64,000 nucleotides of DNA from Haliotis rufescens. Taxonomy: Eukaryota. The notes under the pieces are model-generated. The model made no database searches. It was not told where the DNA came from and was given only the letters and a program-made list of their open reading frames with translations. This document shows positions 825-62,424 of this stretch, piece by piece. The first letter of the stretch is position 1; each line of letters starts with the position of its first letter. The stretch spans positions 47,306,001-47,370,000 of the forward strand of contig NW_025964383.1 of NCBI RefSeq assembly GCF_023055435.1. The letters run 5' to 3'. The position numbers and the translations under genes are program-made.

Positions 825-1630
825 ATTTCTGACATGAAGGGTGAATCTACTGTTATGTGGAAATAGTGGAACAGAAGTGATTAAGGTAAAAACACTGAAG
901 TAGTTTATCGGTTACACAGAGATTAATAAACGAGTGTCTGTCAGATACCATTTATCTTACGAGTTGTTTTCAAACGTATCTAACGAGCGAGTTGTAATGT
1001 AAATGAATAAGGTAAAAAGACAAATTTCAAAGGGGACCTTTAAGTAAGTTTGCTTTGCATAAAATGGATGACATCACAGAAGAGGGAATTTCCCTCAGAA
1101 TTCACAACTGTGAAGTGTATGAGTATAAGTAGTGTAATTTGTAATTTATTCGAGTTCGAAGTGAGGACATGTCACTGTGGCATCCAGGGTCTAAACTCTT
1201 AAATCATAACGTTCAACACAGACATGGTTAACATTCGACTGAAATAACTTACCTACGATCAGGAGAAAAGTCCGTCATAATCTTACCTCAGGTCATCACC
1301 TTTAAGTAGCCAATCACGGACCTGGAATTCGATCTCGCACATGTTGGATACCCATCATCTGAAATGAATTTCCACCCACATCTGTCTTTGTAGTTATCTG
1401 GTGGAGACAAAGCCAGTTGAACTTCCTACCACCGGTTAGGGTGACGGGGAACCGTTCAATTCCAGGTGTCCAGTGGGAGTCGAAATTCTACGTAGCTACT
1501 CGTCAACAGGAGGGTAGAGGTCGCCACTGTCGTGCGTGATAGTTATTTTGACAACGGAATCTTGTCATGCATTGACATTGACATAACGAAGACACCGTTC
1601 AACCTTTAATGTGTGCGTGGTATTCGTCGG

Positions 1631-1834: not shown

Positions 1835-2090
1835 CTGTACCAGGGATAAGAATAGGTTTTCATCAACCAATGTTTGTGAAAGGCGACTATGCTTGTCGAA
1901 AGAGGCGACTAACCTATGGGGTGGTCATGCTCGCTGACTTGGTTGATGCATGTCATCGTACCCCAATCGCGTGAATCGATGCTCATGATATGAATCACTG
2001 GATTGTCTGGTCCAGACGCCATGTATTTACAGACCGCCGCCATGTAGCTGGAATATAGCTCAGTGCGGCGTTGAACAACAAACAAACAAA
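1835..2090 (+). mobile_element. SINE-like family B (no tRNA head; LINE-5'UTR-like head), diverged copy
   Basis: Matches the family B consensus with an (AAAC)n tail. Confidence 0.85.
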
Positions 2091-9860: not shown

Positions 9861-10589
9861 TATAACACATTAAACCTCTTCATATATATCGTCTTTTCAG
9901 GACGCTGCCGTCAGCTTTAGCCCAGCTTTATCAGGATAAGCTATAAGTAATGAGCAAACTGTGGATGTGTTGGGGTCCGGGTCAACACGGAGAAGTGTTA
10001 TCGTCGTGATGGCAGTAAGTCTGATAAGCTAAAATGTAAGTTCATGATGACAGATTGGTGGATGCAAGTGCTGCAGTAAATGACGAGTTATCTGCCTTGT
10101 TCTCTGCTTGTACTGACACATCTCCATCATGCACACTGTGACAATGATGGTATGAACATACTAGCACTGACTTATGTAGTGTTGTCAATGTCCAATGTTG
10201 TTCGACGACTTCATGTGTCACTATACTGTCGGAATGGATGACAAGAGCGTGAATCTCTATATGCTTGAAATACAGGTACGCCTGCTAGAGCACTTTGAGT
10301 TTCTCCCCACGTACGACACGTTGACACCCAGGGTGTTCTTTTATGAGGACTGCCACATTACATGGAAGTGAAATATTGAAACTGTTTGCCGACACAGTAC
10401 ATTGTCCCGAAATATTGGGGGTCCTGTTTTCCAATGGTAGCCTGGGCTATATCAATAATTTGCAGGCCATGACATATGGAAAATGACCTACCCTTTATTG
10501 TACACTTTCTCACATGACACTCAGTGGTTTACAATTTGTTATCACACCACATGCACAGTGAGCACATACACAATTGATCCTTGCTGTGT

Positions 10590-11860
10590 TAGATGCTTCC
10601 TCTCCAAAGACTGTTGTGCGTCTCACACACTATCAGACACAAACAGTTTCGCACAACTGACTAATGTTGGCGTCTCACACGCTATCTGACAGAGTTTCAC
10701 ACTACTGACCGCTGTTGTGCGTCTCACATACTATCACACACAAACAGTTTCACAAAACTGACCGCTGTTGTCCGTCTCACACACTATCACATACAAACAG
10801 TTTCACACTACTGACCGCTGTTGTGCGTCTCACACACTATCAGACACAAACAGTTTCACACTACTGACCACTGTTGTGCGTCTCACACACTATCACATAC
10901 AAACAGTTTCACACAACTGACTAATGTTGCGCGTCTCACACACTATCACATACAAACAGTTTCACACTATTGACCGCTGTTGTGCGTCTCACACACTATC
11001 ACATACAAACAGTTTCACACTACTGACCGCTGTTGTGCGTCTCACATACTATCACATACAAACAGTTTCACACTACTGACCGCTGTTGTGCGTCTCACAC
11101 ACTATCACATAGAAACAGTTTCACACTACTGACCGCTGTTGTGCGTCTCACATACTATCACATACAAACAGTTTCACACTACTGACCGCTGTTGTGCGTC
11201 TCACACACTATCACATACAAACAGTTTCACACTACTGACCGCTGTTGTGCGTCTCACATACTATCACATACAAACAGTTTCACACAACTGACTAATGTTG
11301 TGCGTCTCACACACTATCACATACAAACAGTTTCACACTATTGACCGCTGTTGTGCGTCTCACATACTATCACATACAAACAGTTTCACACTACTGACCG
11401 CTGTTGTGCGTCTCACATACTATCACATACAAACAGTTTCACACTACTGACCGCTGTTGTGCGTCTCACACACTATCACATACAAACAGTTTCACACTAC
11501 TGACCGCTGTTGTGCGTCTCACACACTATCACATAGAAACAGTTTCACACTACTGACCGCTGTTGTGCGTCTCACATACTATCATATACAAACAGTTTCA
11601 CACTACTGACCGCTGTTGTGCGTCTCACACACTATCACATACAAACAGTTTCACACTACTGACCGCTGTTGTGCGTCTCACATACTATCACATACAAACA
11701 GTTTCACACAACTGACTAATGTTGTGCGTCTCACACACTATCACATACAAACAGTTTCACACTACTAACCGCTGTTGTGCGTCTCACATACTATCACATA
11801 CAAACAGTTTCACACTACTGACCACTGTTGTGTGTCTCAAACATTAACACACGCAAACAG
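10590..11860. repeat. 53-bp minisatellite, about 24 copies
   Basis: Unit cacactatcacatacaaacagtttcacactactgaccgctgttgtgcgtctca. Confidence 0.97.
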
Positions 11861-12193
11861 TACCTTATTCACGCCACAGTTTTAAATGTAGTATCTTTGT
11901 TTTTTTACATGTAAAAAGAAAGGTCGTCGTAAATCAAACATGGTACTCATCGTGGCGAAACATGTGCCCTCTTCAAAGCAGAGAGATGGTACTCCGAACA
12001 TAGAAGTGACATCACACAATCGAGACATAGTGGAAAGAAACGAGGCTGCCCACGAGAACTATGGCCATTAAACGTAATGCTGGAGACAACATTGTTACAA
12101 CAAATATTAAAGCTATCCAGTCCACAAACATATCAACAGTTGCTAAACGGGACATACATGGATGTTATGATGACTCATCCATTTTCAATGATT

Positions 12194-12459
12194 TGGTTGG
12201 TTGGTTTGTTGTTTTTACGCCGCACTCAGCAATATTTCAGCTATATGACGGCGGTCTGTAAATAATCGAGTCTGGACCAGACAATCCAGTGATTAATGTC
12301 ATGAGCATCGATCCACGCAATTGGTATCGATGACATGCATCAACCAGGTCAGCGAGCCTGACCACCCGATCCCGTAAGTCGTCTTTTACGACAAGCATAG
12401 TCCCCTTTACGGCAAGCATGGGTTGCTGAAGACCTATTCTACCCCGGAATCTTCACGAG
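12194..12459 (-). mobile_element. Family B, full length
   Basis: TSD tttcaatgatt. Confidence 0.9.
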
Positions 12460-12469
12460 TTTCAATGAT

Positions 12470-13624: not shown

Positions 13625-16491
13625 ATGCTGCTGTCTGCTCGGGAGATGATATTCATCGTGTGTTGTATCTGGGTCCAAGGTATGTAGAATATTTGGTTCA
13701 TGATTCAGTTTGGGAGTGTTGACCATAACGTATACGTAATATATATATGTGTCGTACAATTAAACTGACTGTTGTACAAAATCTTACCCAAGCCAATTAC
13801 GACTCCCAGGAGGAAACGATTAAATATGTGTGCTTGTGAGTGAAGGAAAGGAAGGAAGAAATATGCCCAAGTGGATAACTTATAATATGCTTACAAACTA
13901 CACTGTCAGTTTGAGGACAACTTATTTTGAGATAACATGAACATACAAACAACTTCGTTACAAGTCAGTGTGTTCACCTCAAAAAGATTTGGTTGGTTGG
14001 TTTGTTGTTTTACGCCGCACTCAGCAATATTCCAGCTATATGACGGCGGTCTGTAAATAATCGAGTCTGGACCAGACAGTCCAGTGACTGATATCATGAG
14101 CATCGATCCACGCATTTTGGATCGATGACATGCTTCAACCAAGTCAGCGAGCCTGACCACCCGATCCCGTTAGTCGCCTCTTACGACAAGCTTTGTTGCC
14201 TTTTACGGCAAGAATGGGCTGCTGAAGATCTATTCTATCCCGGATCGTCACGGGTAACCTCAAAAAGATTTTTTTTAGTTCAAAATAGTCCTTGATGTCA
14301 GTAATTTCATTACGGCACCAGACTCATGGTCGTGAATAGTGGCGACTACCTACAACATTAAGTTGGCACGCTATGAAATATTGTCAAGAACAGTGTTAAA
14401 CCAAGCTGTCACACTCTCTGTTATCATCAGCGTTGTCATGTGTCCTTCATAGGGATATTCTCCAAAAGGACTCCTGTCCCATGCTCAAAATACTACTGAT
14501 TATCTCTGCTACCCCATACACGTCTAGTATTTTTATTTATGCACAGGCAAAGATGTATTTACAGAGAAACGTTTCAATGAGAGTTTACATGATAAGTCAG
14601 TGCAACATGAGGACGATTCACAATGGTCACACTGGACCTTACCTTCCTTTTGGACAGTGTTCCAATTGTGAAGTAAACATGTCCTTAATGAAATCAGATA
14701 TCACGTTCAGTCTGAATATCTCCGCATGAAAGGTGACTAAGCTAGATGTATTTTCATTGTATTGCAACTCCAGTGGAAATTCATAAAAAATAACAATTAT
14801 TCCTTCAGATCGGCTTCATGTCAAGGCAGATAATATCATGTTACAAAAACCAAGGCGCCTCAGTTCTACTTACAAATGGAAATCTGATGGCAAAGATTAT
14901 TATTACCACTCCTACTATGCCAATGATGGCAGCAAGATCAGATGGCCAGCCAGAAGTGGTTTTCAGGCAGGCCCCTACTGGCAGGGAGACTTGCAAGGGT
15001 TCTACACAGTACATAACATCACAGTCACCAGCGACGACCATACTACATTTGGTGAGCCGATATATGTATCAAAATTAATATAATACCAACCCCTATATGA
15101 AATGATCATGTCCAGTGTTAACAATCTTTCAAGAATCACATTTACTGGGGACATAATGTTTCAGAAAACTATTTATTTCTAAAATCCGAATAATGTACGC
15201 GGCAATTCCACATCAGGCGACCGATTTACGTTGCATGCGTTAAAAAAAACATCTGCTCAAAAGAGTCATTGCATATATTACTTATTATACATAGATAATT
15301 CCAGTATGTTTATGAACAGAAAATTTATCTTGTCTTGGGATTGAACAGCTTACAATGAGCATGTGAAGTGATAATGTATTTATTTGATCAACCAACTGTT
15401 GAGTTGTACGTAGTATATATCGTTTCAATTTCGCAGCTTCAGACATCAGAGATGCGTACATTGGTGTGTCGTCAGTTGACATCAAGTGCCCGGATGACGA
15501 CGTGACCTGGTGTGGTCAATGGCCGGCAGATACATTACCTCGAGAAACCTTGACCTTCAGCTGTTCCCACGTGCAGCCTGTGAGATTCGTGAGGGTCTGG
15601 AGAAACATCACAGGCTACCTGACTGTCCAGGAGGTCGAGGTTGAGGGCACTCCGAGAAGAACAAGGGGTAACTATTGGATCGTGTATCATGCTATACCTA
15701 GAGATTACATACATATACATAATATGTGTTTATGCCAGCTTGATTATACGTGCCTTACTCGACCACCAATCCTCCCAAACACCCTCCCATGATATATAAT
15801 CCATTATACACCCCGGGAAGGACAATGGGTAACTGTTAGATCTTGACTGATGTCATGGCTATAGATAACATCACGGCAGAAAGCCCAAGTGGTGCTGGAT
15901 TACATAAATAGCAATATTTGTCTGTGACTTTCAAGCACAATCATAACGTTCCGCACTGGACCACGTGCCTTCCCACCCTCCATCTCAGTATAAACACAAA
16001 TATATCATATACTATGAATATTCCTACTCATTCACTCGCTCACAAACTAACAGGCGCACTTCTACAGTTATTGCACACAACCTAGATGTGTATTTGTCTT
16101 CCGCTATATCTGAGGATCTGTCACAATAGCACTGCAGTGTGTTGTAAATGAATGCTCCTAACACATCTCAATGCTCCTATTCAACTCATTCAGTGAGCCA
16201 CTGCTTATAGATTTTGCAAAATTCTGTATTTTAGCCGCCAAGTACAACAAGAGTCTTAACAAGAAGCTGTACACACCGCTGACGTCAGTGTATGCCATAT
16301 CAGCCAGTGACTGTGGTATCAAGTGTTACAAGACCCAGCCTTGCCTCGGTTTCAGCTACAATCCATCTGCTGATCCATCCTGTCTCCTTGCGACATCAAC
16401 AAAATCGACAACAGCCACCGACTGGGTTACGTACTCCATCACTGACTGCTCCAACCACATCACTTGTGACCTGACTGATCAGTTCAAATAA
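13625..16491 (+). CDS. Secreted F-type lectin (fucolectin/F5-8C-fold)-like domain plus C-terminal PAN/apple domain protein, 4 exons, 261 aa
   Basis: Exons 13625-13679 (MLLSAREMIFIVCCIWVQ, signal-like), 14809-15051, 15437-15667 and 16235-16491. All introns are GT-AG and phase 1, and the frame is open throughout. ANDG, PYWQGDL, V.NITVT, WCGQW, FSC...VRFVRV and YLTVQEVEV resemble FTP/F5-8C motifs. The last exon SASDCGIKC.....CLGFSY......CLL is PAN/apple-like. AATAAA lies at about 16905. Confidence 0.8.
13991..14256 (-). mobile_element. Family B, full length, in lectin-gene intron 1
   Basis: TSD acctcaaaaagattt. Confidence 0.9.
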
Positions 16492-17844
16492 TTACCCTTC
16501 ATTACTCGATTTCTAGTTCTACTACCCGTGCCAGCTTTTGAAATACAATCAAACATGCTATTACCAGCAACCACCGCCGAACGACTCTTGTTCCGAAGCT
16601 GTGTAATCAAGGTTACAACATGCAAGGCCTTCGAAATCTTGTACAATGTTTTATGGTAGACATGCAGAGGACATTTAAGAATTAACTTTGTATAAATTCA
16701 TTCGATTATGAACCGTTATAGAGTGAGGGCCAAACTGTATGAACGACGGAGCCTGCTAGACACAAAGTGAAAATCAATTGTTATAATTCTTCAACACAAT
16801 TTCTTACCTCAAAGGATGTAGACCGAGATTTATACACTATTTTATTTAGTACGTGTGACTTCATGTTTACACTGACAGCCATACAACAATCGGCTGTATC
16901 GCCGAATAAATAAGTTCCTAAAAACGAGAGATGATATGAGCGTATGTATGCACAACTTGCCCTTCAGAAAAATCTTACGCAACACCTGTATTCAAATAAT
17001 ATACTCATAAGATGAGAAATGACTTAAGAACCACCCTAGTAAGTTACTCACAATGACAGCGTTAGTCATAATTCATTTACATCAAGTGCAAGACGTCAAA
17101 ATGGCCGACACGATAAACGTGACGGGAGATTTCCGAAGTTGTTGATGAACGTGGGGCAGTTACATGTTTTAGTCATCATTGATCAGTTGGCCGATTACTG
17201 AAAGGTGATTAAAGGTGTGTCAAAAAGGCACTCAAGGTTATTTCATAGATTGCTGTAGAATGTCACTGTCAGCCTAGACACGGATCAAGTCGATACTACA
17301 ATAGTTTTGATGTGCATTTCTTCGTTTTGTTCATTAGGATGGGTCATATCAAGGATATGCATGAACGATCGTAAAACTCTCTGACGTTACTCAGTGTTTA
17401 CTGAAACGTCACATTGTGTCGTTCATACACGTATGAACCTCAATTTTGCGGTCCTGTGACCCAACTCTCGTCCAGTGGAAATGCCGTTTATCGTGTTAAC
17501 TTCAAATTAAAAATATTTCCAAATTAAACGCATCAATTGATTCAATATGATTCAATTCCTTATTTTGACTTGAACCTTATGTCCCGTTCTTTTTCACGTG
17601 AAAATTGACTTGTCGTTGACTTGAATGTGCTTTTGGCAGAGATTTTGTTGCTTTTAATGTTATTGTAATGGAATGTTGATGTACCTTTGGCATTAATACA
17701 CAAAATAACATCCTTTAAAAAAATCCTGGCATTGACTTTTACTGATAAGTGAGGTGAAACGGAGCAAACCGTCACATTCAAAATTTGTGCGTGTCGTGTG
17801 CGTGCGTGCGTGCGTGCGCGCGTGTGTGTGTGTGTGTGTGTGTA

Positions 17845-19540
17845 CCCTTCACATGAGATCAACCTCGATGTCTCTTCACGTGTGACCAACCTCGATGTCT
17901 CTTCACGTGTGACCAACCTCGTTGAATCGTTACGTGAGATCAACCTCGATGTATCTTCACGTGTGATCAACATCGATGTATCTTCATGTGAGACCAACCT
18001 CGATGTATTTTCACGTGTGACCAAACTCGATGCATCTTCACGTGAGACCAACCTCGATGTATCTTCACGTGTGACCAACATCGATGTATCTTCACGTGTG
18101 ACCAACATCGATGTATCTTTGATGTATCTTCACGTGTGACTAACCTCGATGTATCTTCACGTGTGACCAACATCGATGTATCTTCGATGTATCTTCACGT
18201 GTGACCAACTTCGATGTATCTTCACGTGTGACCAACCTCGATGTATCTTCACGTGTGACCAACCTTGATATATCTTCACGTGTGACCAACCTTGATGTAT
18301 CTTCACGTTTGACCAACCTCGATGTATCTTCACGTGTGACCAACCTCGATGTATCTTCGATGTATCTTCACGTGTGACTAACCTCGATGTATCTTCACGT
18401 GTGACCAACATCGATGTATCTTCGATGTATCTTCACGTGTGACCAACCTCGATGTTTCTTCACGTGTGACCAACCTCGATGTATCTTCGATGTATCTTCA
18501 CGTGTGACCAACCTCGATGTATCTTCACGTGTGACCAACCTCGATGTATCTTCACGTGTGACCAACCTCGATGTATCTTCACGTGTGACCAACCTCGATG
18601 TCTCTTCACGTGTGACCAACCTCGTTGAATCGTTACCTGAGATCAACCTCGATGTATCTTCACGTGTGACCAACCTTGATATATCTTCACGTGTGACCAA
18701 CCTTGATGTATCTTCACGTGTGACCAACCTCGATGTATCTTCACGTCTGACCAACCTCGATGTATCTTCACGTGTGACCAACCTCGTTGAATCGTTACGT
18801 GAGATCAACCTCGATGTATCTTCACGTGTGACTAACCTCGATGTATCTTCACGTGTGACCAACCTCGATGTATCTTCACGTGTGACCAACCTCGATGTAT
18901 CTTCGATGTATCTTCACGTGAGACCAACCTCGATGTATCTTCACGTGTGACCAACCTCGATGTATCTTCACGTGTGACAAACCTCGATGTATCTTCACGT
19001 GTGACCAACCTCGATGTATCTTCGATGTATCTTCACCTGTGACCAACCTCGATGTATCTTCACGTGTGACCAACATCGATGTATCTTCACGTGTGACAAA
19101 CCTCGATGTATCTTCGATGTATCTTCACGTGTGACTAACCTCGATGTATCTTCACGTGTGACCAACATCGATGTATCTTCGATGTATCTTCACGTGTGAC
19201 CAACCTCGATGTATCTTCACGTGACCAACCTCGATGTATCTTCACGTGTGACCAACCTCGATGTATCTTCGATGTATCTTCACCTGTGACCAACCTCGAT
19301 GTATCTTCACGTGTGACCAACCTCGATGTATCTTCACGTGTGACCAACCTCGATGTATCGTTACGTGAGATAAACCTCATTGTATCTTCACGTGTGACCA
19401 ACCTCGTTGATTCGTTACCTGAGATCAACCTCGATGTATCTTCACGTGTGACCAACCTCGTTAAACGTTACATGAGATCAACCTCGATGTATCTTTACGT
19501 GTGACCAACCTCGTTGAATCGTTACATGAGATCAACCTAG
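17845..19540. repeat. 27-bp minisatellite, about 60 copies, with 11-bp sub-duplications
   Basis: Unit cacgtgtgaccaacctcgatgtatctt; preceded by a (GTGC)n(GT)n microsatellite at 17797-17843. Confidence 0.97.
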
Positions 19541-21091: not shown

Positions 21092-23434
21092 TTGTTCTTG
21101 CTAATGCTAAACAAAGACCTGATGACATCCGATCAATCAGAGCATCGCCTATCAGAGCGGAAAAGTAACAGTTGTAATGTGCTTTCTGATCATGCAACCT
21201 TGAAGTGGTTAACTCAGGGCTATTCCGTACGATAGTTGCAGGCTATATATCACCATGTAAGTGATTATCAGAGTAAAGTTATGTAAGCTGGTTGATTTGA
21301 GTGGATAGGCGTGCATGCTTTGCTACACATGTACATGTAACTTTCATGCATTTGGGCAATCTTTATCTTAATTCTGAAGAAACGTTGACCAGGTTGGACT
21401 GTGAGTGATGTCCCTAGCTTTTGTGGCTTGAGAGTTATATTTTTATTGATTATATTGTTTGGGCGTATTATGTCATATTGAGTCATTTGTGAACATATAA
21501 AGTATGGCGTTTTATATTTTGAAGGTATGTAATTGTGTATATATTATGAATTTGTCAGTCTATTCGTCAGTAAGTAAGACATATGAACTTCGTTTCGGCG
21601 CCAATGTAGTACGTCCTGTCAAATGGTATGTAAACATCACTTTATAAGTGTACACTACGACATGTAGTTTCATGTTCCTATACATGTGATTCTGGGCTTG
21701 CAAAGTCTACCTGCAGTTAGTTTGGGTCAGTACAGTTGACAAGGTCTTTTTAGCAAAGTTTGACTCATTGGTATGTAATAATATCGTCATTGGAGTTGGT
21801 TGAAGCTAGATATTATACTCTCTGCATGTTGAAAAACTTTGTCTTTTTAATAAAATAACATCAGCTAACCGGATGTAAGTTACTCCATTGTGTATGTAAA
21901 GACATTCTAGTTTGGTACATATGGGTACTTGAATGGTATCAGACATCAGTAATGTTTCTTTGGTTGTGTCGTGTCAGAAAACCGGGACCGGCACGGGACT
22001 CCTAACAAGACGTGCGGACGTAGCTCGCTGCCAAGGCACGGGGGATGGTTACCTTTTGAGAGAGCCGGCAATGTGACAAAGTGTCATGTGAGACACGTGT
22101 CATATAGAGGTGAGCTGTTGTTCGAGGCACGTGAACATGTGTATACACGTGAACTGTACATGTGCTGAGGCTACATGCAGCTACAAGCGAACTTCAGTTC
22201 CGTATGTATATATTTGCATTGATATATTTGCATTGTGCTTGAATGCTGTCATATTATGTTTATTATGTATGCTTTTTATCAGATAATGTAACAGATTATC
22301 AATGGGGAAGAAGGAGTACGATAGTGGATGAGTGAGATGGTTGAGAATTATTGAAGCAGTATGAGCTAGTTGTGTGGACATCTTGTGATTCCCTTTCTCC
22401 CCAAAATAAAACACAAGTATTCTCCATGACCTTACAGAACTGGTGTCACTTTTGCAGTGTGAAAACATGGACAAGACAAATGCAACCGCAAAAACTGTAG
22501 GAACATTGACGGAAAAGGTAACCATACAGAGTTGGGGCAACCTTAACATTATATTCCCCGATGGCCTACAGTTCGGATTTCGGAAGAGAACTGGCGCTCC
22601 AGTTTGCAGCCGTTACCCTGCAAGAATGTATGGCGTATTTCAGACAATTACAACCTGTATTTTACCGTATTTGGGCGTTTGATAAGATTTGGCACATCGA
22701 CTGCTGAAACAGCTATTCACACTTAGAATAAAATATATTTATACAACAGCAATGTCTTACAGTACTTTTCAAGGTCATCAATCAGATCATTTTGAAATAC
22801 ATGGCTGTCGCACAATCTGACGATCCTGACGTCAGGTGGTGACCCTTGGTCTTCCACTACGTGGTCGGTCATATGTAGTGTTGGTGGTCTGATACCGTTA
22901 ATGGCGCCTGTATATGGTCCATACATGGTCTTGAAATGCATTGGCTACTTGCTGGGTGGTTTCTCCAGCTTGCAATCGTTCAAGGGCTTGGTGCCCTGTC
23001 AATCTTGGCATGTGGTAGCAATTCAATAACGAATGAATGTTATCAAATCTGGGTGGATTTTTATAGGGCAAAAAATGGGGGAACGCATGTGCATTTCAAT
23101 TTGAACTCACGTGCATCGTTCTACCATGGCCCTTGCCGTGATGGTTTGGGCGATCGGTTTTATTGGCATCTGCTTTTTGTTTTGATCATCTAATTTCATT
23201 TTTCCGGACAAGGGAATGTTAAATTTTAGAAACATTGACACAAATTACCCAGATATTTAAATGAAAACTTTTCATTCAATGTTACTTGGGGTGACGTTTC
23301 TGTTGCGGTTCAGTATATTTTTACCTATATTTCACTTATGATCGTAATTCTTTATGAACAGCCTTGTCCTGTGAACTACATCTCCTCAGAAACCACTGGA
23401 CCAATGAAGCTGAAAGTGTAAAGTTATACTCTTA

Positions 23435-23763
23435 GGTGAGGTGAGGTGAAATGGGGTTTAACGTCGCGTCCAAGATTATTGCACTTATATAGCGACATGC
23501 ATGCACGTGTATGTGTGTGTGTGGCTGCTTGTACTAGTCCGGACTGATGCCGATTTATAGTGCTAGCTCACTGAGATACCATTTCGCAGTTTAACATGAA
23601 TAACCCACTCAGACCCAGTATACTGACTCCGAGCCGACCAGTCCTTGTTTTAGCCCTTTAATGCCGAGCGCCAGACAGGTTAACAACCTGACCATCTTTT
23701 AACGTCTTTTGGTATGACGCGGCCGGGGATCGAACGCTGAACAACTAGACCACGGAGGCGGTC
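23435..23763 (-). mobile_element. SINE family C (tRNA-derived head, (CACCT)n tail)
   Basis: TSD agttatactctta at 23422-23434 and 23764-23776. Confidence 0.9.
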
Positions 23764-31839: not shown

Positions 31840-32073
31840 TTTGTTTGCACTCAACAATATTTCGGCTATATGACTATACTCGAGTCTGGACCAGACAATC
31901 TAGTGATTGCATCATGAGCATCGATCCACGCAATTCGGATACGATGACATGCATCAACCAAGTCAGCAAGCCTGACCACCCGATCCCGTTAGTCGCCTCT
32001 TACGACACCCGAGTCGCCTTTTACGGCAAGTATGGGTTGCTGAAGACCTATTCTACCCCGGATCTTCATGGGT
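31840..32073 (-). mobile_element. Family B, near full length
   Basis: Head intact to acccatgaag; tail degraded. Confidence 0.85.
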
Positions 32074-32314
32074 CTACTTGAAATGAAAAAAATAATTGAC
32101 TATTAGAGTAATATACAACTCAAAGGATGTTAAGGACCAAACTCGGGAATATTAATAGAATATGTATGATTTGATAACACTCCAATTTCTTTCCATTGAT
32201 GTTTTTCCCTTTTGACGTTTGTGTGTCTCCAGTATCTAGTGGGCAAATATTTATTGTCTCTGATCTAACACAACATTGAGTTTTAGTCACACTTTAAACT
32301 CGGCATATTTTCAG

Positions 32315-34012: not shown

Positions 34013-35299
34013 GTAACACTGGTCAAAGTGCATTCAATTTAATGGCTGCATGCCAAAATTCCATGCAAATGAACTGCCGATCTAAAAAAATGTGAGATCA
34101 AGGGTACCAAGGATTCAAAGCAGTACATCTGATATATGTATCAGGAAAACAAATGTTCCCTGTTTGGAGTTTTTGAAACCATTGACAAACTCTCACTTAA
34201 GATAAGAAAGTATTATTTAATTGCTTGCGATATTGTAATGGAAAGAGATAATTATGAACAGGGAAATAGATTTAGGAGATTGTGCGCAGTTGTGTGGAAA
34301 AACCTAGGATGGAATTGCGTCATATAGGTGGAATATTGCTGATTGTGATGTTAGAAAACAAAGAAACCAAACAAAAAGAGAAAATTAGTAACCTCTTGTA
34401 ACATGAAGTAATATTTTATGTGTTGTCGTTCTACTTTAATTAATCAGTATATGTGTATTGCTTAAAATAATATCAGAGGATCTACGGTGACATGTACTCG
34501 AAACCTATCCACCAGTGTTGAAACATATATAAGAACATTGAGTTTTTGAATTGAAATTAATCTCAACTGGCTTTTGATATATAATCGGAATGAACCTGTA
34601 GAGTCTGGACTTGAAATTATAGGCTTGCAGGATATATTTTGGACAATTTGTGCTCCACAGTTAGATTAATGTTTAGTCCCCGGAAATATATTATTTTAAT
34701 AGAAACAAGTAAATGCATTAAAATTGAAAGTAACTCCAGAGAGATGGAAATTTCTGCCTGAACATGTGGAAAATGTCGGCTTGTTTCATTCAGGGCTATA
34801 TCAGTACCGCAAGGGCTGGGCGGAAGGGAAAATACGAAAGTTCAGGGACTGTGACATTACTTATCAAAGATAGCATGTTTGTGGCATTTGGAGGTACCCG
34901 AGAACCTTCCGTTTACAGGTCCCCTCACCTGTCCGACACCTGTAGCTCAGCAACAGGGTAGGCAGGGGTAATCCCTAAAGAACTGGCATGCGGGATATAG
35001 TATATTTCTCACATCCTGTGATATAATCTAAAAAAACAAGTTTGATGTACGACTTTTACATCCATTTACCTGCATTTGAATGTTTCACCATAAATCTAAA
35101 ATCCATCCCACATAAGACACATTAAAAATAATGAAAGATACACCATTTGTTCACATGTTTATATATGATTGACATTACTCTCAGAATTTGTATTAAAATC
35201 TATTGACATATATCTATATCAATTTATATGGATCTAAATAAAATAACGTTATTGTGACATTTTTCTCATCAATATTTATTCAAACACATACAATATTCA

Positions 35300-35430
35300 A
35301 GCTACATGACGGGGGTCTGTAAATAGTCGAATCTGGACCACACAATCCATTGACTGAATATTATAAGTATTGATCTATCAAATTGGGATACGATGACATA
35401 CAGCGAACAGCCTGACCACTCGATCCCGCT
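35300..35430 (-). mobile_element. Family B, degraded fragment
   Basis: tctgtaaata.tcga.tctggacca.acaatcca...cctgaccac.cgatcccg. Confidence 0.75.
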
Positions 35431-39132: not shown

Positions 39133-39415
39133 AGGGGGCACGGGTGGCCCAGTCGTCTAAGGCGCCGCGATTCGCTGTGCAGAGTTGCGTCCCTCGGGCA
39201 CGCCAGAAACCTATGATTGTGGGTTCGAATCCCGGTTCGCCCCAATTATGTTTGTAGGTTTGTCAGCACCATACCCGTGCTCGTGGGTTTCACCGAAGTG
39301 GTAAACGTCTGAGACCTGCATCACTTCGGGCTTTCCTCCCACATCAAGCTGACACGCCATGATATAACTGGAATACTGTTAAAAATTGCGTTAAACCCAA
39401 CTCACTCACTCACTC
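39133..39415 (+). mobile_element. SINE family A
   Basis: TSD actcttcatacata. Confidence 0.9.
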
Positions 39416-39642
39416 ACTCTTCATACATATACATAGAGACATTCTAACCATGTAAACACCAAATCTGTTCAAAATAGAAAACCATCTCTTGTCATTCCCT
39501 TTACAATCGCCATGTTGTTATCGGCTATTATGTTTGTTTAAATGCTGCATCAACTGTTTCATACTATCACTGTTAGATTTAACAATGCCCCTTTAAGATT
39601 ACAGATGTCAGACACGTGTACATAGTTTTGTTTGTGTTCCAG

Positions 39643-46296: not shown

Positions 46297-47392
46297 GTGA
46301 TCTGCATATGTGTAAGGTCATGTTCTGGATATTTATGCTACATGATGATCGATGCATGTGTGTAATTATAACGTAATGATTTATACATGTAATGTGATGA
46401 TCTATACATTTCACTGACGTTAATCATGTACCGTATATTAATATGTAGATTTAAGTTGGTTGGTTGGTTTGTTGTTTAACGCGCACTCAGCAATATTCCA
46501 GCTATATGACGGCGGTCTCTAAATAATCGAGTCTGGACCAGACAATCCAGTGATTAATATCATAAAATACGATCAACGCAATTGGGATCGATGACATGTA
46601 TCAACCAAGTCAGCGAGCCTGACCACCCGATCCCGTTAGTCGCCTTTTACGACAAGCATAGTCGCCTTTCACGGCAAGTATGGGTTGCTGTAGACCTATT
46701 CTACCCCGGAATCTTCACGGGTCGTAGATTTAAGTACATGTGTAACGAGATGATCTGTCATGTGTTTAACGCAATGATTTATGCATATACCGTCATATGT
46801 ATGTTTGTTACGTGATCTACGCACGTGTGTATCGTGATGATTCACGTGTCTAACATGCTAATTTATGCATTTGCATCACGTGCATATCTATGCTTTTGTT
46901 TAACGCGATGATCTTGACACTTGCGTAACTGGATGATTTATACATTTGCGTAAGGTAATGATCTATGCACTTGTGTAGTGTGGTGATCTACGCACATGAT
47001 TAACGTAAAGATCTCTGTATTTGTTTAACGAGATGTCATTTGCATTTGTGTGATGTCACGTTCTATAGCTATGTTTTTGTATAAAGTGATAATACATGCT
47101 TAAATAAAGTGATGCCCTTTGCATGTGATTGGCGTGATGATCCATCATCTGTGTGACATGATGTGCAAAGCATGTGTGTAAAGTTGTTTGTCTATTCTGA
47201 TGTATGTTACATGTATAATGTGATTATGCATACGTGTGTGCAATGGTGTGATCGATGCACGTGCGTAACGATGAGATACATGCATGTGTGTCACATGTTG
47301 ATCTAGGCACGTGTGAAATGTGAAGATCCATGCATGTGTTAAATATGGAGGTCTATGCTCCTCGACGAACATGTGTTACATGGTGATCTATA
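46297..47392. repeat. Old degenerate ~26-bp satellite interrupted by a family B SINE
   Basis: Recurring tgatgatct/atgcatgtgtgtaac-like units. Confidence 0.7.
46457..46723 (-). mobile_element. Family B, full length
   Basis: TSD gtagatttaagt. Confidence 0.9.
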
Positions 47393-48972: not shown

Positions 48973-49093
48973 GTTTTAAAACAGACAATAATAGTAGAAA
49001 TCAATCATCTACACTCCATTTGGCTTTTGTACTAAGGTCAGTACTCTCTATCATCCCTTTTACATGTAATCAGCAGTTGATGTATTCTTTCAG

Positions 49094-51522
49094 GAATCAA
49101 AATGTTGTTCAGTACTCGAATGAACCTTCAGACACCTTCGACAGACCTCACGCTCCATAGCGCCTGCCGACAGGGGAGCATAGAAGGTGTGAGGTACCTC
49201 TTGTCTGACGGTTTAGCTGATATCAACACCAGGGGGAAGAATGGGAGGACGCCAGTCATGGTTGCCGCCTGTGATGGAAACAGGTCCTTGTTCCAACTTT
49301 TGGTGAGGGAAAGAGCTGATCTGCTACACTTGGATGATGATGGCAACAATGTGCTTCATGTTGCCTGTCTTGGGGGCGACTTGGAAATGGTCAGGCATAT
49401 TCTCAAACTTGACATTGTTGACATTAACAGTAAAGGAATGTACGGCAGAACACCAATTATGCTGGCAGCCCGAAAAGGATATAAGACAATCTTTGACCTA
49501 CTCGTTAGCTCAGGATGTGATTTGACGCATGTAAGCAATGATGGCGACAATATTCTTCACCATGCCTGTTTGGGTGGCTATTTGGATATTGTGAAATATA
49601 TCCTTCATGAAAATATTGTTAGCATTAACAGTAGAGGGAAGTATGGCAGAACGCCAGTGATGAAGGCAGCATGGGGTGGACACAAGAGAGTATTAAATCT
49701 CCTTGTGGACAAAGGCGGTGATGTATCCCTCTTTGACAATGAAAATGACAACATCCTCCATGTTGCCTGTATTAGAGGCAATGGAACAATGGTTAAGCAT
49801 ATTCTCTCAAAACAAGTTGTTGGTATTAACAGCCGTGGGAGAAAGGGAAGATCACCACTGATGGTGGCTGCACAAAATGGTAAGAAGGAACTTTTTAACC
49901 TTCTTCTCTGTCAAGGAGGCAACATGTTTCAGACAGACGGTGATGGTAACAACATTCTGCATGTGTCCTGTATTGGAGGCCACCTGCACATGGTGGTGTA
50001 CGTCCTCTCGGGATTTATATTCGACATCAACAGCAGAGGTAAGATTGGACGGACACCAGTAATGCTGGCAGCAGAGAAAGGACATAGACAAGTGTTCAAC
50101 TTGCTTGTGAGTAGAAATTGTAATCTGCATCTTGACGATTCTTGTGGTAACAACATAATACATGTGGCCTGTCTGGGGGGCAGGGTGGAGATGGTGAATT
50201 ATCTTCTTGCATACAACACATTTGGCATCAAGAGCAGAGGCAGAGACGGGCGTACTTCAATAATGTCTGCAGCAGAGAAGGGTCATATAGATGTGTTCAA
50301 GTTGCTGATGAGTAAAGGATGTGATGTAATGCTCAATGACGACCATGGTGATAGCATCCTCCACATTGCCTGCAGTGGTGGCAGTATGGACATGGTTGCA
50401 TACATCCTGTCACTGGGACAATTTGACATCAACAGTCGAGGGAGGTGGGGCAGAACGCTGGTCATGTTGGCAGCAGAAAAAGGAAATCGACAAGTGCTTG
50501 ACTTTCTTGTAAATGAAGGAGGTGACCTGTCTCTTATGGATGATGAAAATGACAACATTCTTCATGTGGCCTGCATTGGTGGAAATGTAGAAATGGTTAA
50601 GCACCTACTCCAGATGAACATCTCCAACATCAACATCAAAGGAAAGTATGGTAGAACACCAGTGATGTTGGCAGCAGAGTTTGGTCATATAGAACTGTTT
50701 TACTTCCTTGTGTGTAAAGGCAGCGACTTGTTGCTTGTGGATGACAATAGAGACACCATCCTTCACATTGCTTGTGGAGGAAATGTGAAGATGGTCAAAT
50801 GTCTTCTCTCACTCGATGTTATTGACATCAACAGCAGAGGTAGCCACGGTAACACCCCCGTCATGACAGCAGCCAGTAGAGGAAACAGGGGAGTGTTTGA
50901 GTTGCTGGTGAAGAAACAAGCAGATCTGTCTCTCCTGAATGAGGATAACAATAGCATCCTGCATGTAGCATGTATCACCGGGAATGTCAGCATAGTCAAC
51001 TTTCTCATCTTAAAGCATGCTGTTGACATTAACAGTAGAGGGAAGTATGGTAGGACTCCGGTGATGTTGGCGGCAGAGTTTGGAAACAGTGAAGTGTTTG
51101 ATCTGCTTGTTCAACATGGTGCAGATATATCCCTGAGAGATGATGATAGGAACAACATCCATCATGTCTCGTGCAGTGGGGATAATGTGAAGATCATAAA
51201 CGTTGTTCTGATGAAGTGCATGTTTCACATCAACAGTAGAGGACATGGTGGAAGGACTTCATTGATGTGGGCCGCAGAGAAGGCACAGACAGGCGTCTTT
51301 GACTTCCTGTTGAATAAGGGAGCTGATGGAACTCTAGTGGATGATGATGGTGACAACGTCCTTCATGTTGCCAGTGCAGTGGGTAATGCTGATATCGTGA
51401 GACATATCATCTCCAGGAACATTGTGGACATCAACGCCACAAATAATTATGGATCAACGGCAGATATGATAGCAAGGGGAAAAGGCCACTACTCAGTGAG
51501 CAATATCTTCCATGACAAGTGA
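49094..51522 (+). CDS. Long single-exon ankyrin array (about 24 repeats; 806-aa ORF from ATG 49102)
   Basis: Uninterrupted ORF of alternating GRTPVMLAA and NILHVACxGG repeats. A gtattctttcag acceptor ends at 49093 (phase 1, in frame). Confidence 0.93.
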
Positions 51523-52393: not shown

Positions 52394-54984
52394 TTGTGGC
52401 AAAAAGTGATTTTTACATCTACATCACAAGTGATGACGTTCCTTTCACACTGATTCAAATGACATGCCGTAAGTTGCCACATGTGCAGACGATTTCCCAT
52501 CGTCGGGGCATGTACTCTTACACCTGTTGCAACCAGTCGCTTGTCTGAGTGGCACTTTGCGAACGATTTCTTAATGTGATCGTTCTGACTTATCTCTTCT
52601 GTGCTGGAGTTGTTGCCAGAGCAGCATCGGTCATCGATGTTATGTGTTTGTTGGTTTGGGCCCACAATCTGTCATCAGCAAAAAGTGGTCATGTTGCACA
52701 TAAACGTTCATCACGTTGCAGACGTTGCATGATCAATGATATGCCATCCTAAATGTATCAACATGCCTTAGAAAGTGTCTTCGAGGAAGATAAGATGCGT
52801 CTCATCACACCCGAATGTGAGTGGCAATAGTAAATCTGGCATACCATCCCTAGAACGTGCTGTCCGAGGTCACGTGCTTAACGTCTGTCACAATGTTGTG
52901 TTTCGGAGTTATATTTCTTCGGAAATCTGGCAATATCAATAACTTACTTTCATTGTCAGACATTGGTGTATTTTAGTAATAGTCCCAAACTCACTACAGA
53001 AACGATTTCAAACATCACAATTCATTTCTATTGCATCAAATGTTAGTGTCAGAAACTATCACAACAGCTCGACAGTGACGTGTACATATCTATTGTGTTT
53101 CAAATGTACAGAATAAATTATGTATAGAACAAACAATTTTTATAGCCTATCACATAAAATCATGGTGAACTATACCCTATTAAGAGACATTATACTACGC
53201 ATTGTATATCGGTAGAGCCATAGTCAGGTGTTGTTCGCGATTTTATGCCAATGTATTCTCACTGTTAGCTGAATACACTCTGCCTGCATTTTTTACAAAG
53301 AGGAACGAAACGATGCATTTATATGAGTTCTTTATAGATAAGACATATAAAAAAAACGGGACCAGTAAATAATAATTTTCCCTGCCCACAATATCATTAA
53401 TTCAGACTTCCTCAAAGGAAACAGTTTGAGAGCAGTTTGTATTTGGCATGTTTGTAAAGGGGTAGGACGAGTAACTACATGTTATGCACAGCACACAAAA
53501 CATGCCCAGCCCTGCCCAGGTATATGGTAGAAGGTAGTAATAAGCATAGGTTCAAAACTGCACATTAAATCAGTTTGTTCGTCATTCTAGGGAACATTTA
53601 TGTTTGAAATACAATAACTAACGCAATTCAATGCAAGAATGAGACGTGTATATGTCAGGTGCCAAGGGTCAATGAATAGCTTGATCTTACAACACATAAA
53701 TATGAAGGGACATTGTCGAGCCACAGTCAGGTGCCAAGGTTCAGTGCATATAATAATCTTACAACACAGAGATACGGAGGGACATTTTTCAACTCCAGTC
53801 GACTCGTAGTCTTTTGAGATAAGGACAAAACTATCCATGCACATGAGATATTTGAGTTTACACTATCACTGTCAAGTCAATGGTTACAATATCTAGTTAT
53901 GCATCGACACATTTTTAGAGGGGAGAACCAATTATGTTATATTTCAGGTGCGTTAACTAAGCATAGTTGCATGAGTTGCATAAATGTCTCCTTTCTGCAG
54001 AGAACATTCTCCATACGACAGTACAGATCTCCCGACCACGCGACTTGTGAAGACTGTGGAAAAAATACCATAGCCATGTATTGTTTGAGAGGCATTTCTT
54101 TGAAGTTAACTTATGACAAAGTAATAATTGTCACAGCATTGAAGTAGAGAAATGTAAACCAGTTAAGAAAGATGCTGAATACTAGATTTAGTGCCCTTAC
54201 CTTTGGTTCTCTGGATCATGTTCCATACCTTGGACATGGGCGTGAATGTATTTTTGACACATAATTTCGCTAAGATTGGCGTTTACTTTGTTTAAACGTT
54301 CGCCTTGTTTTAGTGTTTAAAATGTTTAATTTTTTAAATTATGGACCATAGGATGATGACGGATATAATGCTCAGCCTTTTTCCTCGCCTTCATAGCTTG
54401 TTTGTATGTGGGAAATTGCAGATGACTTTGGAACACATTCTTCAGCTATCTTGTTGAGTTCATCAGAAAAGAATTGTATTCGATCACGAACGTCAGTAAA
54501 GCGATCAGGTGTTTGCCTGTACAGAGAATGTCATACAGAGGCGAGTTGGCTTCCTTGAAGTTCCATCGAGATGATGGAGGAACATATGATGGGGTAATAG
54601 TGTTTAATGTCACTTCCACAGAGGTTATCGTGAACTGACCACTCAAATTCATTCAGCAGGTTGGAATCGGTAACAATCAAATCCAAAGAAGAGTATGTGC
54701 CTGTACCAGGATGTAAATATGTTTTTTGAATTATCGTTTAAAATGCATAGAGTTTTGTTGAAAATAAAATCTTCTACGGAGCTTGTCTCTTCTGCTTGTA
54801 TGATCACAAAGTCAAAGTGGATTATGACCGTTCATATCGTCCATTATCATACAGGGCTTAGGAAACTGGTCATAGAGAGCTTGACGATCGGAGGAGATGC
54901 AGATGGAGGAATGTAAACAGATCACAGAGTAAAAACAATTTGCATGGTGAAACAAACTGTGATAGCTTGTAGAGGAACATTGAG

Positions 54985-55340
54985 GTGAGGTGAGGTGAAA
55001 TGGGGTTTAACGTCGCATCCAAGATTATTGCACTTATATAGCGACGTGCATGTACGTGTGTGTGTTTGTGTGGCTGCTTGTACTAGTCCGGACTGATGCC
55101 GATTTATAGTGCTAGCTCACTGAGATACCATGCTACAGTTGAACATGAATACCCCACTCAGACACAGTAAACTGACTCCGAGCCGACCAGTCCTTGTTTT
55201 AGCCCCTTAATGCCGAGCGCCAGACAGGGTAACAACAAGTACCATCTTTTAACGTCGTTTGGTATGACGCGGTCGGGGATCGAACACCGGACCTTCCGCT
55301 TTCCGGGCGGACGCTCTACCACTAGACCACGGAGGCGGCC
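54985..55340 (-). mobile_element. SINE family C, full length, nested in the LINE ORF2 remnant
   Basis: TSD gagga(a/g)cattgag. Confidence 0.9.
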
Positions 55341-56511
55341 GAGGAGCATTGAGAGGACACAGGGCTATGAATAACACCCTGCTTCACCAAGATAGTAGAA
55401 CCTCCAGTTGCTTTATCCCCTGGAGGTGAAAAGAAATGATAGGAATCGTATTGTTTATTGTTTAGTTGATATATAGTTTTAAGGTAAGTTACTGGCAAAC
55501 AAATGGCTGATGGCTTGAAATCTTGTTTTCATTGCTGCAAATCATTAAAATTGTTTAATAGTCCTCTGCAATTCCATTGTATGATAGGGTTAGAACAGGT
55601 CATAGTGGTTCTGCTGAGAATCTTGATCAGGACTGATATTGAACCTTAACAGGTGCTGGCTGAGAAGAAGGCACATCCAAGTGTTAGAGGGCCTTGGCTG
55701 TTTTTTTAAGTTTCTTTTTTTTTCCTTTTTTGTTAAATGTGGGTCTCTATGAATTGGAGATGATTCTGGTTCCAATGTTTTTGATTCCACTAGCTCCGTC
55801 TGTGAAGCTGATGTTGCTTCGTGTTGCTGGAGATGTTTGGGCTGTATTGTCTTTTAGAATCTGCTGATTATCAACCCAAGAGATGGTTGTTTGGCATCCT
55901 ACTGATACTGTGGCAGCCTTGACACCAGGAGTGACAGTTACTGCTGCTGATTAAGATTTTGTTAAGTTTTGGGGAGATTGTGACTGAACTAGCTTCTTAG
56001 CATCATGAAAAGAGTTATTATTAGTGTGTTTAGTTGTTAATATTTGCCATTTAGTGGACAAAGTTTGGATGGGGCCAAGCGGTCTCTATCGCAATTTGCA
56101 CACTTTATGGCATCAGTGCACTCTGTGCTCTCATGTGAGCCACGGCAGCGCACACAGACAGTGCTGAGAGTACAGGTATTGGCACCATGTTCAAAATGTT
56201 GACATTTATAACTTCGGAGTGGGTTTGGTACATAAACTTCCAAGCCAATATTAAAGTACCCAGATTTGATTGATTTAGAACTTGTTGGAAGAACCGGGCC
56301 CATTCTACCACCTGTCTAGGTGAAGTTAGGGTCACAGTTGTGTGTTTGGCAAAGGAACACAGTTCCAGGAACCAGTGCTCTCAACTACCAGACTACCTTC
56401 CTCCATCGACACAGGGGCGCAACACACGGCAAACGGATTGCCCAATTTGGTCGCCTTTTACGACCAGCAATTGGGTGCTGAGGACACATTCTACCCCGGG
56501 TCCACACGGGG

Positions 56512-56569
56512 GAAGAGCTTTTAGCGTTACCCGGCACTTACCACGGGGAGGTTGCCCTTCACGGGTGCC
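56512..56569 (-). ncRNA. Candidate HDV-like self-cleaving ribozyme at the LINE 5' end
   Basis: Minus strand reads GGCAC CCGU GAAGGGC A ACC UCCCCGU GGU AA GUGCC GG GUAACG CUAA AA GCUCUUC. This gives P1 GGCAC/GUGCC, P2 GAAGGGC/GCUCUUC, P3 ACC/GGU, L3 UCCCCGU, P1.1 CC/GG and J4/2 GCUAA, in HDV nested double-pseudoknot order. Confidence 0.7.
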
Positions 56570-60500: not shown

Positions 60501-61270
60501 AGAGCCCAGAGTGCATATATATTTATTACCAATTTAGAGACATTTACACGCACTTCATTAAGCCAAACAAGATAGTCACACTACGGATCAATAGATCGAG
60601 GGTCCCTATGAACGTGTGACGCACCAAACCATTTTCACAGCTTTCAATTTGATTTAACATAAAAGGATAAGCGTGGTAATGAAGTCAGTTTTAACTGTCT
60701 GGTAATATATCTGAACTTACTTTGGATGCTCCGGTTGTGCCATCAGTGTCCCCTTTGAAGCGTATTTTGTGGCACTGTTTTGGGAGGTGTCTGTTTATGA
60801 ATAAACATCCAATATTTGCATACAACACAAGCATATTTGAGTTTGTTGATTTCACGGTCTTCAGTATCGGGTCGTACAGTTAACATTAATGTCTTTGTCG
60901 AGCACTCTGATTTCCCTCTTCCAAAATTGTATGGACAGGATATAAACTCAGCTGATAGATCAAGTAAACCGCAAAATGTTGATTGCACAGCCGGAAACGC
61001 CGGCGATGCGAGTGACCGACTGTTTGTCCGATATTCAAAGCGACGCTTATTGACTTTTTAGATTTTCTTGGTGTCGTGCGAACTAACAATGCGCTTGAAT
61101 TGATATAAGTTGAATAAATTCTTCAAATAAGATCTTGATCGTTGATGCTGTCATGTTTGCACACACAACAGCCGGAACATGTTGTTAACGCGTATGCATA
61201 GAAATGTCAACAATGCCCATATTTCGGCATATATCAATATTAATGCGCAACCAGATTTGCAACCGGTTTC

Positions 61271-61374
61271 AGTTTGATCTGTCAACGAAAGAAAATGTTT
61301 ATATATTTAAGTGTAAATACATAAACATTTAAGTGTAAATACATAAACATTTTCTTTCGTTGACAGATCAAACT
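61271..61374. repeat. Palindrome with perfect 32-bp arms
   Basis: agtttgatctgtcaacgaaagaaaatgtttat ... ataaacattttctttcgttgacagatcaaact. Confidence 0.93.
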
Positions 61375-61718
61375 AATATTTTGACATGTGTAATAATTAA
61401 AATACCACACTCATTCTCGTTAGATACCATGTTTTCGAAACGCGTGAACTTTCTATGGTATCTAACGAGATATATATATATATGATGAACTCGCATGACG
61501 TCGACTTATTAACACGAATGCTTCATTCCACAAACTGTTGTTGTTTTAATGGATTAAAACTGAAGGGAAATCTTGTGATCTGTTAGTCGTTATGTTCTTT
61601 ATATTCATTAGTGTCAAATTGTCATCTAGACCGTCTTGAATCCATAACCACAACTGGTACTACAACAATAACTACAACTACCACTACTACTGCTTTAACT
61701 GCAGGAACTGTGACTACA

Positions 61719-61719
<1 letters not shown>

Positions 61720-61773
<54 letters not shown>
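61720..61773. repeat. (ACT)n microsatellite
   Basis: Direct reading. Confidence 0.95.
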
Positions 61774-61774
<1 letters not shown>

Positions 61775-61782
61775 ATCCTACT

Positions 61783-62050
61783 GACCCGTGAAGATTCTGG
61801 GGTAGAATAGGTCTTCAGCAACCCATGCTTGCCGTAAAAGGTGACTATGCTTGTGGTAAAAGGAGACTAACGGGATCGGGTGGTCAGGCTCGCTGACTTG
61901 GTTGATGCATGTCATCGATCACAATTGCGTGGATCGATGTACATGATATTAATCACTGGAATGTCTCGTCCAGACTCGATTATTTACAGACCGCCGTCAT
62001 ATAGCTGTAATATTACCGAGTGCGGCGTTTAACAACAAACCAACCAACCG
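61783..62050 (+). mobile_element. Family B, full length, inserted beside an (ACT)n tract
   Basis: TSD actaatcctact. Confidence 0.9.
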
Positions 62051-62154
62051 ACTAATCCTACTCCTATTACGATGACATCTGCGAAACAACAAATAAATCA
62101 TCAACAACAACTACTACAACCACAACAACTACTGCACTACCACTACCACTACAG

Positions 62155-62385
62155 CCTCTGAAAGATTCGGGATAGAATTAATCTTCAGCAACCCATGCTT
62201 GTTTTTGAGAAGCGACTAACAAGATTGGAAGGTCAGGCGCGCTGACTTTGTTGATGCATGTCATCGTATCCCAATTCCGTAGGTCGATTCTCACGATGTC
62301 ACTGACTGAATTGTTTGGTCCAGACTCGATTATTTACAGACCGCAGTCATATATCTGTAATATATTTGTGAATTAGGCGTCAAAC
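62155..62385 (+). mobile_element. Family B, older variant with a single hairpin module
   Basis: Diverged match; lacks the 22-bp internal duplication seen in the other copies. Confidence 0.8.
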
Positions 62386-62424
62386 AGTTAACTACTACTA
62401 CAATCGCCATGTTTACTTGTCTAG

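Follow-up and report, generated by a model that had tools for sequence, protein, structure and literature searches.

Family B repeats in the analysed DNA

The 64-kb stretch of Haliotis rufescens DNA analysed here (the window) carries several kinds of repeated sequence. Minisatellite arrays lie at 3424-4471 (44-nt unit), 4700-6430 (12 nt), 10587-11999 (53 nt) and 17770-19527 (27 nt), and an AT-rich, near-perfect inverted repeat with a 22-nt tandem inside it occupies 61269-61376. An 813-aa stop-to-stop frame at 49081-51522 (+) is made of ~201-nt repeats, and is one that we take to be ankyrin-like. When the interspersed repeat at 61783 was used as the query in BLAST and nhmmer searches across the window, nine clear copies of this family, termed B, and one faint fragment were detected. 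The clear copies are as follows:

61783-62050 (+): full-length copy, 268 nt with its terminal CAAC repeats
61771-61782 (+): 5' TSD of this copy, exact core 12 nt; the 3' TSD is at 62051-62062
12194-12460 (-): copy with an 11-nt exact TSD
13991-14256 (-): copy with a 15-nt exact TSD
46457-46723 (-): copy with a 12-nt exact TSD
31847-32074 (-): copy 31840, which starts as the others do and has a decayed 3' end
62154-62394 (+): older copy (62150), with a single-unit head, compensatory changes in helix S2 and a start at about the usual place
1841-2090 (+): copy 1849, 5' end diverged
6825-6991 (+): 5'-truncated copy, starting near nt 111, so that the first ~110 nt are missing
35292-35428 (-): fragment spanning nt 91-234, the first ~90 nt missing

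Copies 61783 (+), 12194 (-), 13991 (-), 46457 (-) and 31840 (-) are 88-93% identical in pairwise comparisons, and all begin within 1-2 nt of GACCCGTG. The first bases are GACCC in copies 61783, 46457 and 31840, whilst a T replaces the initial G in copy 13991 and this G is absent from copy 12194. TSDs bound four of these five, the weakest being that of copy 61783, which lies inside an (ACT)n tract; a search around copy 31840 found none. The original prediction that four TSD-bounded copies and copy 31840 share a start is thus correct to within 1-2 nt. Its wider claim of a precisely fixed 5' end applies to five of the nine clear copies, and fails for copy 1849, which has diverged, and for copies 6825 and 35292, which are truncated. 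Were truncation uniform, finding five of nine starts within 3 nt would have a probability of ~3e-8; the other four comprise two truncated and two diverged copies. Young copies are 266-268 nt long, terminal repeats included, and read AATATT before these repeats, where copies 1849 and 62150 read AATATA.

Outside the window, at least half of the B query words were present in 14 of 24 sequencing runs, among the matches listed. Long B-specific patterns had no match in viral and genome contigs, and one in metagenomes (L001).

Composition of the family B element

B has neither the Pol III boxes nor the small-RNA head of the SINEs headed by tRNA, 5S or 7SL sequences. Box B, with up to one mismatch allowed, was absent from all seven of the B copies tested, and box-A-like matches lie at +47 to +70, within a hairpin, bearing out the expectation that no Pol III boxes would be found. 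Box B was detected in three of four control slices from tRNA-headed SINEs, the fourth of which began downstream of its head. ARAGORN found nothing in B, and likewise missed the tRNA-headed control SINEs. In family A, another repeat of the window (542-824 (-) and 39134-39416 (+)), the distance from box A to box B is ~77 nt, which is long for a tRNA-derived head. The B element can be divided into three parts, with coordinates given for copy 61783:

61783-61874 (+): LP head, with helices S1, S2, P3 and P4 predicted
61875-61989 (+): body, ~115 nt
61990-62049 (+): I/Nimb-type tail and CAAC repeats, common to other SINEs of the window

The head aligns with a LINE 5' UTR at 56441-56511 (-) with a score of 74, the best of 2000 shuffles reaching 52, and the tail aligns with those of other SINEs in the window; both relationships had been proposed from the sequence at the outset. 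By eye, the tail of copy 6825 matches in 29 of 33 columns the T. granosa I/Nimb 3' end printed by Martelossi 2024 (PMC11481361). An alignment of the B tail to the body of the window LINE (49, against a shuffle maximum of 46) was discarded, as it likely stems from a tRNA-headed SINE inserted there. Judged by sequence likeness, both head and tail point to the I/Nimb group, and B is likely mobilised by Nimb proteins. As in bipartite non-autonomous LINEs, B opens with sequence from a LINE 5' end and closes with sequence of LINE 3' origin. However, nt 88-205, the ~115-nt body, has no above-shuffle match to the window LINE or to two related 5' UTRs (L014 and L018). Hence the earlier description of B as bipartite and LINE-derived is upheld for its two ends, but the bipartite structure is unproven because the body has no traced source.

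B likely belongs to an element family that has already been described, the LP-SINEs of Matetovici 2016 (PMC4758252), the comparison with Hdi_LP and Hmi_LP being one with their published descriptions. Hdi_LP is represented there by 67 sequences, with a length of 255 bp and 27 TSDs. The ~70-nt head of LP-SINEs is common to Nimb-17_LMi, I-3_DR and RTE-9_CPB (PMC4758252); in the available portion of that paper a role as DNA promoter is only proposed, no structure is named for the head and the donor of the tail is left unidentified. B resembles Hdi_LP and Hmi_LP in its abalone host, its length (266-268 against ~255 bp), its variable TSDs and 3' tandem repeats, its ~70-nt LINE-type head and, in copies 1849 and 62150, the AATATA that precedes the terminal repeats. 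It differs from LP-SINEs as described in the AATATT of the young copies and in a 22-nt duplication. The latter lies at 61825-61869, where young B copies duplicate a P3b-P4 unit; as copy 62150 and L001 carry one unit, the duplication marks a subfamily of B. Among scallop LP copies with a listed TSD, three of 11 have a single A between the TSD and the C-run (PMC4758252).

The window LINE and its HDV-like fold

The LINE whose 5' end resembles the B head lies on the reverse strand:

56512-56569 (-): HDV-like ribozyme fold, predicted by descriptor, with P1 at 5/7 pairs, P2 of 7 bp and L3 reading TCCCCGT
56438-56511 (-): LP head carried by the LINE, contiguous with the HDV-like fold
56292-56436 (-): 5' UTR of I/Nimb type, with homology to L014 and L018 (alignment scores of 66 and 78, where shuffles reach at most 32 and 33)
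54240-56291 (-): decayed LINE body, with ORF1 from residue ~161 and an APE endonuclease region; the 3' part and tail are absent

This element begins GGCACCCGTGAAG. Its ORF1 fragment, which shares 77-81% identity with proteins named Haliotis cracherodii, starts at around residue 161 of these, the first ~160 residues having been deleted. Downstream of ORF1 is an endonuclease fragment. APE, RT and RNase H are all present in one distant full-length relative, an arrangement that we take to be the layout of the I superfamily; Pfam searches with the LINE fragments were uninformative. In both L014 and L018, an LP head precedes a UTR that shows homology to 56292-56436, after which comes an ORF1 N-terminus like P0001. 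As these show the same order of head, UTR and ORF1, the 5' UTR of the window LINE is genuinely of I/Nimb type, and the LINE has undergone an internal deletion; a chimera of RTE head and Nimb body was considered and dropped on the same grounds. A 'WARF' reading in the LINE UTR is at chance level and sits in a conserved UTR block. Inserted in the endonuclease region is a tRNA-headed SINE (55010-55344 (-)) that contains a (CA)n tract as well as CACCT repeats, and a second copy of which is found at ~23400-23720; it resembles the abalone MESC SINE (PMC4758252).

The HDV-like descriptor, which called for nested P1-P2-P3-P1.1-P4 with a catalytic C, has its sole window match at 56569-56513 (-), with three matches in 10 shuffled windows. 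At 56512-56569 the modelled fold is nested and has the catalytic C, with P1 incompletely paired, and self-cleavage is putative; Rfam returned no match for this segment. The fold ends exactly where the shared LP head starts, and is read here as a separate module set in front of that head. The ribozyme region contains three occurrences of CCCGTG, which had been placed on both sides of the ribozyme core; one of the three is within loop L3.

A predicted pseudoknotted RNA fold in the LP head

Most of the heads share a predicted layout in which S1a, S2a, S1b, a linker ending AGAAU(A) and S2b form an H-type pseudoknot, followed by helix P3 and hairpin P4. In copy 61783, S1 would pair 61785-88 with 61797-61800 (with one mismatch in this copy) and S2 would pair 61789-96 with 61810-17. 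Four helices are predicted across 13 head copies, and three of them covary. These copies are 13 of 17 rows, aligned with MAFFT after leaving out L011, L015 and L016, which have insertions or partial folds, and the near-duplicate copy 46457. The structure was first spotted by eye on the very sequences that were then scored, in which there are 43 two-sided changes against 16.7 expected (0 of 500 shuffles); 83% of cells are paired in the 13 copies, compared with 66% expected and 29-54% in slid controls. Two-sided changes affect all seven S2 pairs, three of the four S1 pairs and three of the four P3 pairs. P4 exhibits no covariation, and its conservation is partly imposed by the pattern used to search for it. 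RNAalifold recovers S2, P3 and P4 unaided. The covariation is not significant with the window copies and L001 alone (93/500), nor are the single-strand fold z-scores of the window copies, which range from -1.8 to +0.7.

Under a strict pseudoknot score, own pairings pass in 11 of 17 copies and cross pairings in 37 of 260; among the 11 passing copies, at most six of 300 shuffles attain the score. The six that fail are the head of the window LINE, L001, L011, L015, L016 and L018. In L015 and L016 the linker between S1b and AGAAU carries insertions of 11 nt and ~50 nt, and hence this loop tolerates extra sequence. A second pairing, between the P3 loop and the segment after P4, was matched in 29 of 20000 permutations across 18 copies and is absent in L003, L004 and L007; its signal is the weaker one, and it might form in place of P3 instead of adding a second knot. 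The modelled fold is probably double-pseudoknotted, and contains near-invariant unpaired bases.

A covariance model built from eight non-viral rows finds eight heads in the window. Its scores were 58 bits for L005, 55 for L004 and 42 for L009, against 23.5 for hairpin-only controls (L006/L010 and L019), whilst L002, L003 and L007 scored 29, 26 and 22 bits, near those controls. Rfam contained no relevant match to the LP head.

Occurrence of the head in viral and other contigs

A 17-19 nt hairpin motif from B, excluding the pseudoknot region, was used as a search pattern, and was found at nine viral loci and at nine loci in contigs filed under prokaryotic genomes. The whole upstream fold, which lies outside the pattern, is present at seven of the nine viral loci (six of them distinct). 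L003 and L008 are separate assemblies of identical layout. The six distinct loci are five RNA-virus-like contigs and L004. Pfam identified viral ORFs as RdRP_4 (L030), RdRP_3 (L038), Peptidase_A21 (L023) and a nodavirus-type capsid (L035), and gave no match for L021. All five distinct RNA-virus-like contigs carry the fold on the coding strand, at distances of 6, 10, 23, 75 and 101 nt past the last stop seen; these folds are also 71-165 nt away from a contig end, and chimeras may arise in such places. L002 has two tandem copies with different self-complementary S2 strands, the second copy being cut by the contig end. In L004, a 212-kb viral contig, the fold is intergenic (549-626 (+)), ~170 nt before an ATG. 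In retroelements it is found at +1. A looser viral scan gave 22 loci, of which seven were re-finds and 15 appeared chance-like (four of these were scored with the model, at no more than 7.9 bits), and two further looser scans returned three re-finds each. As the 3' UTR of an RNA virus has no use for a DNA promoter, it is likely that the LP head acts as RNA.

The loci filed under prokaryotic genomes appear mostly to be eukaryotic repeats. L011-L018, from bacterial genome entries, carry LINE or SINE sequence of eukaryotic type (with LINE ORF1 in L014 and L018), likely as host contamination. Two short LP-headed elements with TGA or GAA terminal repeats, in L012 (~660-860 (-)) and L017 (745-960 (+)), are presumably RTE-like; elements of more than one kind carry the LP head at their start.

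Origin of the fixed 5' end

It was originally suggested that a deletion between short repeats, in a LINE headed by a ribozyme, may have given rise to B. The start of B and the 5' strand of the ribozyme do share a 10-nt identity that none of 5000 shuffles reaches, and ribozyme helix P2 would bring the two repeats together. Yet the shared bases belong to the pseudoknot of the head itself, as S1a and S2a; CCGTGAAG is found again at this position in the unrelated L004; and B has no GGC start. An HDV-like fold was found within 155-330 nt upstream in none of 14 other head loci, so such a deletion is not needed, and by eye the 'Nimb-17 homology' block of scallop LP-headed copies (Fig. S2 of PMC4758252) matches the B head and begins at the same boundary. 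A deletion would also leave the 5' end of B unexplained. We therefore regard this origin as possible and the match as beyond chance, but the event as unlikely. The accompanying question, whether the 5' end is made by a promoter or by self-cleavage, was well posed, and to these two the data add a structured RNA barrier, which fits better.

B is a SINE that is bounded by TSDs and lacks Pol III boxes, with an I/Nimb-type 5' module as its head and a tail resembling the I/Nimb 3' end. We infer that the fold forms in cells and that the remainder would proceed as follows. Host read-through transcription would supply the precursor RNA, and decapping or cleavage of the transcript would open it to 5' decay. 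The head pseudoknot would then halt 5'-to-3' exoribonucleases, resisting Xrn1/Xrn2, such that transcripts are trimmed to one start, and Nimb ORF2 (RT), engaging the tail, would copy the short trimmed RNA to its end. That the B head is an xrRNA-like barrier of this kind is our preferred model, held tentatively and at somewhat less than an even chance. It is preferred because one function, marking the 5' edge of protected downstream RNA, fits both the viral and the retroelement positions, and because known xrRNAs, which depend upon pseudoknots, are situated where viral 3' UTRs begin and are often found in tandem (PMC8374639, PMC11702639). Against it, the fold matches no Rfam xrRNA family. Exonucleases halt several nucleotides upstream of an xrRNA structure, and B begins just 2 nt before S1, which is close for a halt site. 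In addition, an HDV-like fold is itself thought to be exonuclease-resistant (PMC11331408), so that in the window LINE, where such a fold comes first, a second barrier appears superfluous.

The proximity of the element start to the fold would suit a new self-cleaving ribozyme, cutting 2 nt before S1 and freeing the element RNA from read-through transcripts, as HDV-like and twister ribozymes do at LINE 5' ends (PMC3414825, PMC8501958); the compact, probably double-pseudoknotted fold with its near-invariant unpaired bases is also of the kind expected. We nevertheless consider this doubtful, as such a cut would detach the 3' end of a viral genome and remove the HDV-like fold from the window LINE, and as the element strand of B has no twister or hammerhead descriptor match, no HDV match and no match in Rfam. 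A twister-like mapping of B was rejected because the conserved cores are absent, and the one hammerhead-core match is on the opposite strand of one B copy and uses flank bases. A sigma-70 scan was irrelevant to B. The position of the LP head at +1 of both LINEs and SINEs (PMC4758252) is equally that of an internal Pol II promoter, possibly one that is also a structured RNA, for which Pr77, both promoter and ribozyme, is a precedent; the start G in three of five B copies could be a copied cap. However, DNA recognition explains neither the occurrence in RNA virus 3' UTRs nor the free covariation of S2, and the promoter is presented as hypothetical by the very paper that proposed it (PMC4758252), so we think it improbable. 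Finally, the head may serve translation or dock ribosomes, acting as a 3' CITE-like element in viruses and in cap-independent entry on LINEs, with B retaining it to meet LINE proteins on ribosomes. The locations in viral 3' UTRs, in LINE 5' UTRs and ~170 nt before the ATG of L004 are compatible with such a role, and uncapped, ribozyme-cut LINE RNAs need elements of this type (PMC7761336), but it would not account for elements starting at the edge of the fold, and we hold it to be very unlikely.

Returning to the exoribonuclease barrier, the broader proposition is that the LP head is a mobile RNA fold, distributed among I/Nimb and RTE-type elements, mollusc SINEs, RNA viruses and a large DNA virus, which makes defined 5' ends through either exoribonuclease resistance or self-cleavage. 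It would then be a genome-encoded xrRNA, or a new class of ribozyme, with many copies in abalone; we put this at an even chance.

Relationship to known systems

In possessing a LINE 5' module and 3' end, no ORF and no Pol III head, B is similar to the bipartite elements RIME, NARTc, Bov-A and the R2 SIDEs (PMC5786205, PMC3414825). It differs from them in its I/Nimb affinity, in a body with no traced source and in keeping no ribozyme; ORF-less bipartite elements are sourced only from RTE, Ingi, Vingi and R2 in the available part of Kojima 2018 (PMC5786205). As a short structured module at +1 common to unrelated elements, the B head is comparable to the Pr77/L1TcRz, R2 and Perere-3 ribozymes, although it matches neither the HDV-like nor the twister descriptor.

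In common with class 3 and flaviviral xrRNAs, the fold is a pseudoknot situated where a 3' UTR begins, occurs in tandem copies and has a stem-loop in which 7-8 bp form between the loop and the downstream strand (PMC8374639, PMC11702639). Unlike these, it has no sequence likeness to them, no class 3 P2/L2B core and no Rfam match, and its resistance is hypothetical. It is also reminiscent of s2m, an RNA motif conserved across the 3' ends of unrelated RNA viruses, but s2m has another sequence and fold, and no tie to retroelements was found in the sources available for it.

The LP head motif is absent from the accessible part of the Kojima supplement (PMC5786205) and from the texts reached by a full-text literature search. 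Neither the fold nor its viral occurrence is described in the open-access literature so searched. Hence the covarying fold and its presence in RNA virus 3' UTRs appear to be new, whilst the element family itself was already known.

With a fold of 70-90 nt whose helices are defined, the role of the LP head and the question of the 5' end become directly testable. The job of the head, and which LINE moves these SINEs, are questions left by the 2016 paper, as far as its available text extends (PMC4758252). The 2021 review of xrRNAs, in the part available, has them characterised only in viruses, with cellular ones expected (PMC8374639). If the barrier model is true, a class of SINE would gain its 5' end from RNA decay, rather than from a Pol III promoter, and so would have a precise start that is free of any promoter; an RNA module would also have been shown to move between retroelements and viruses.
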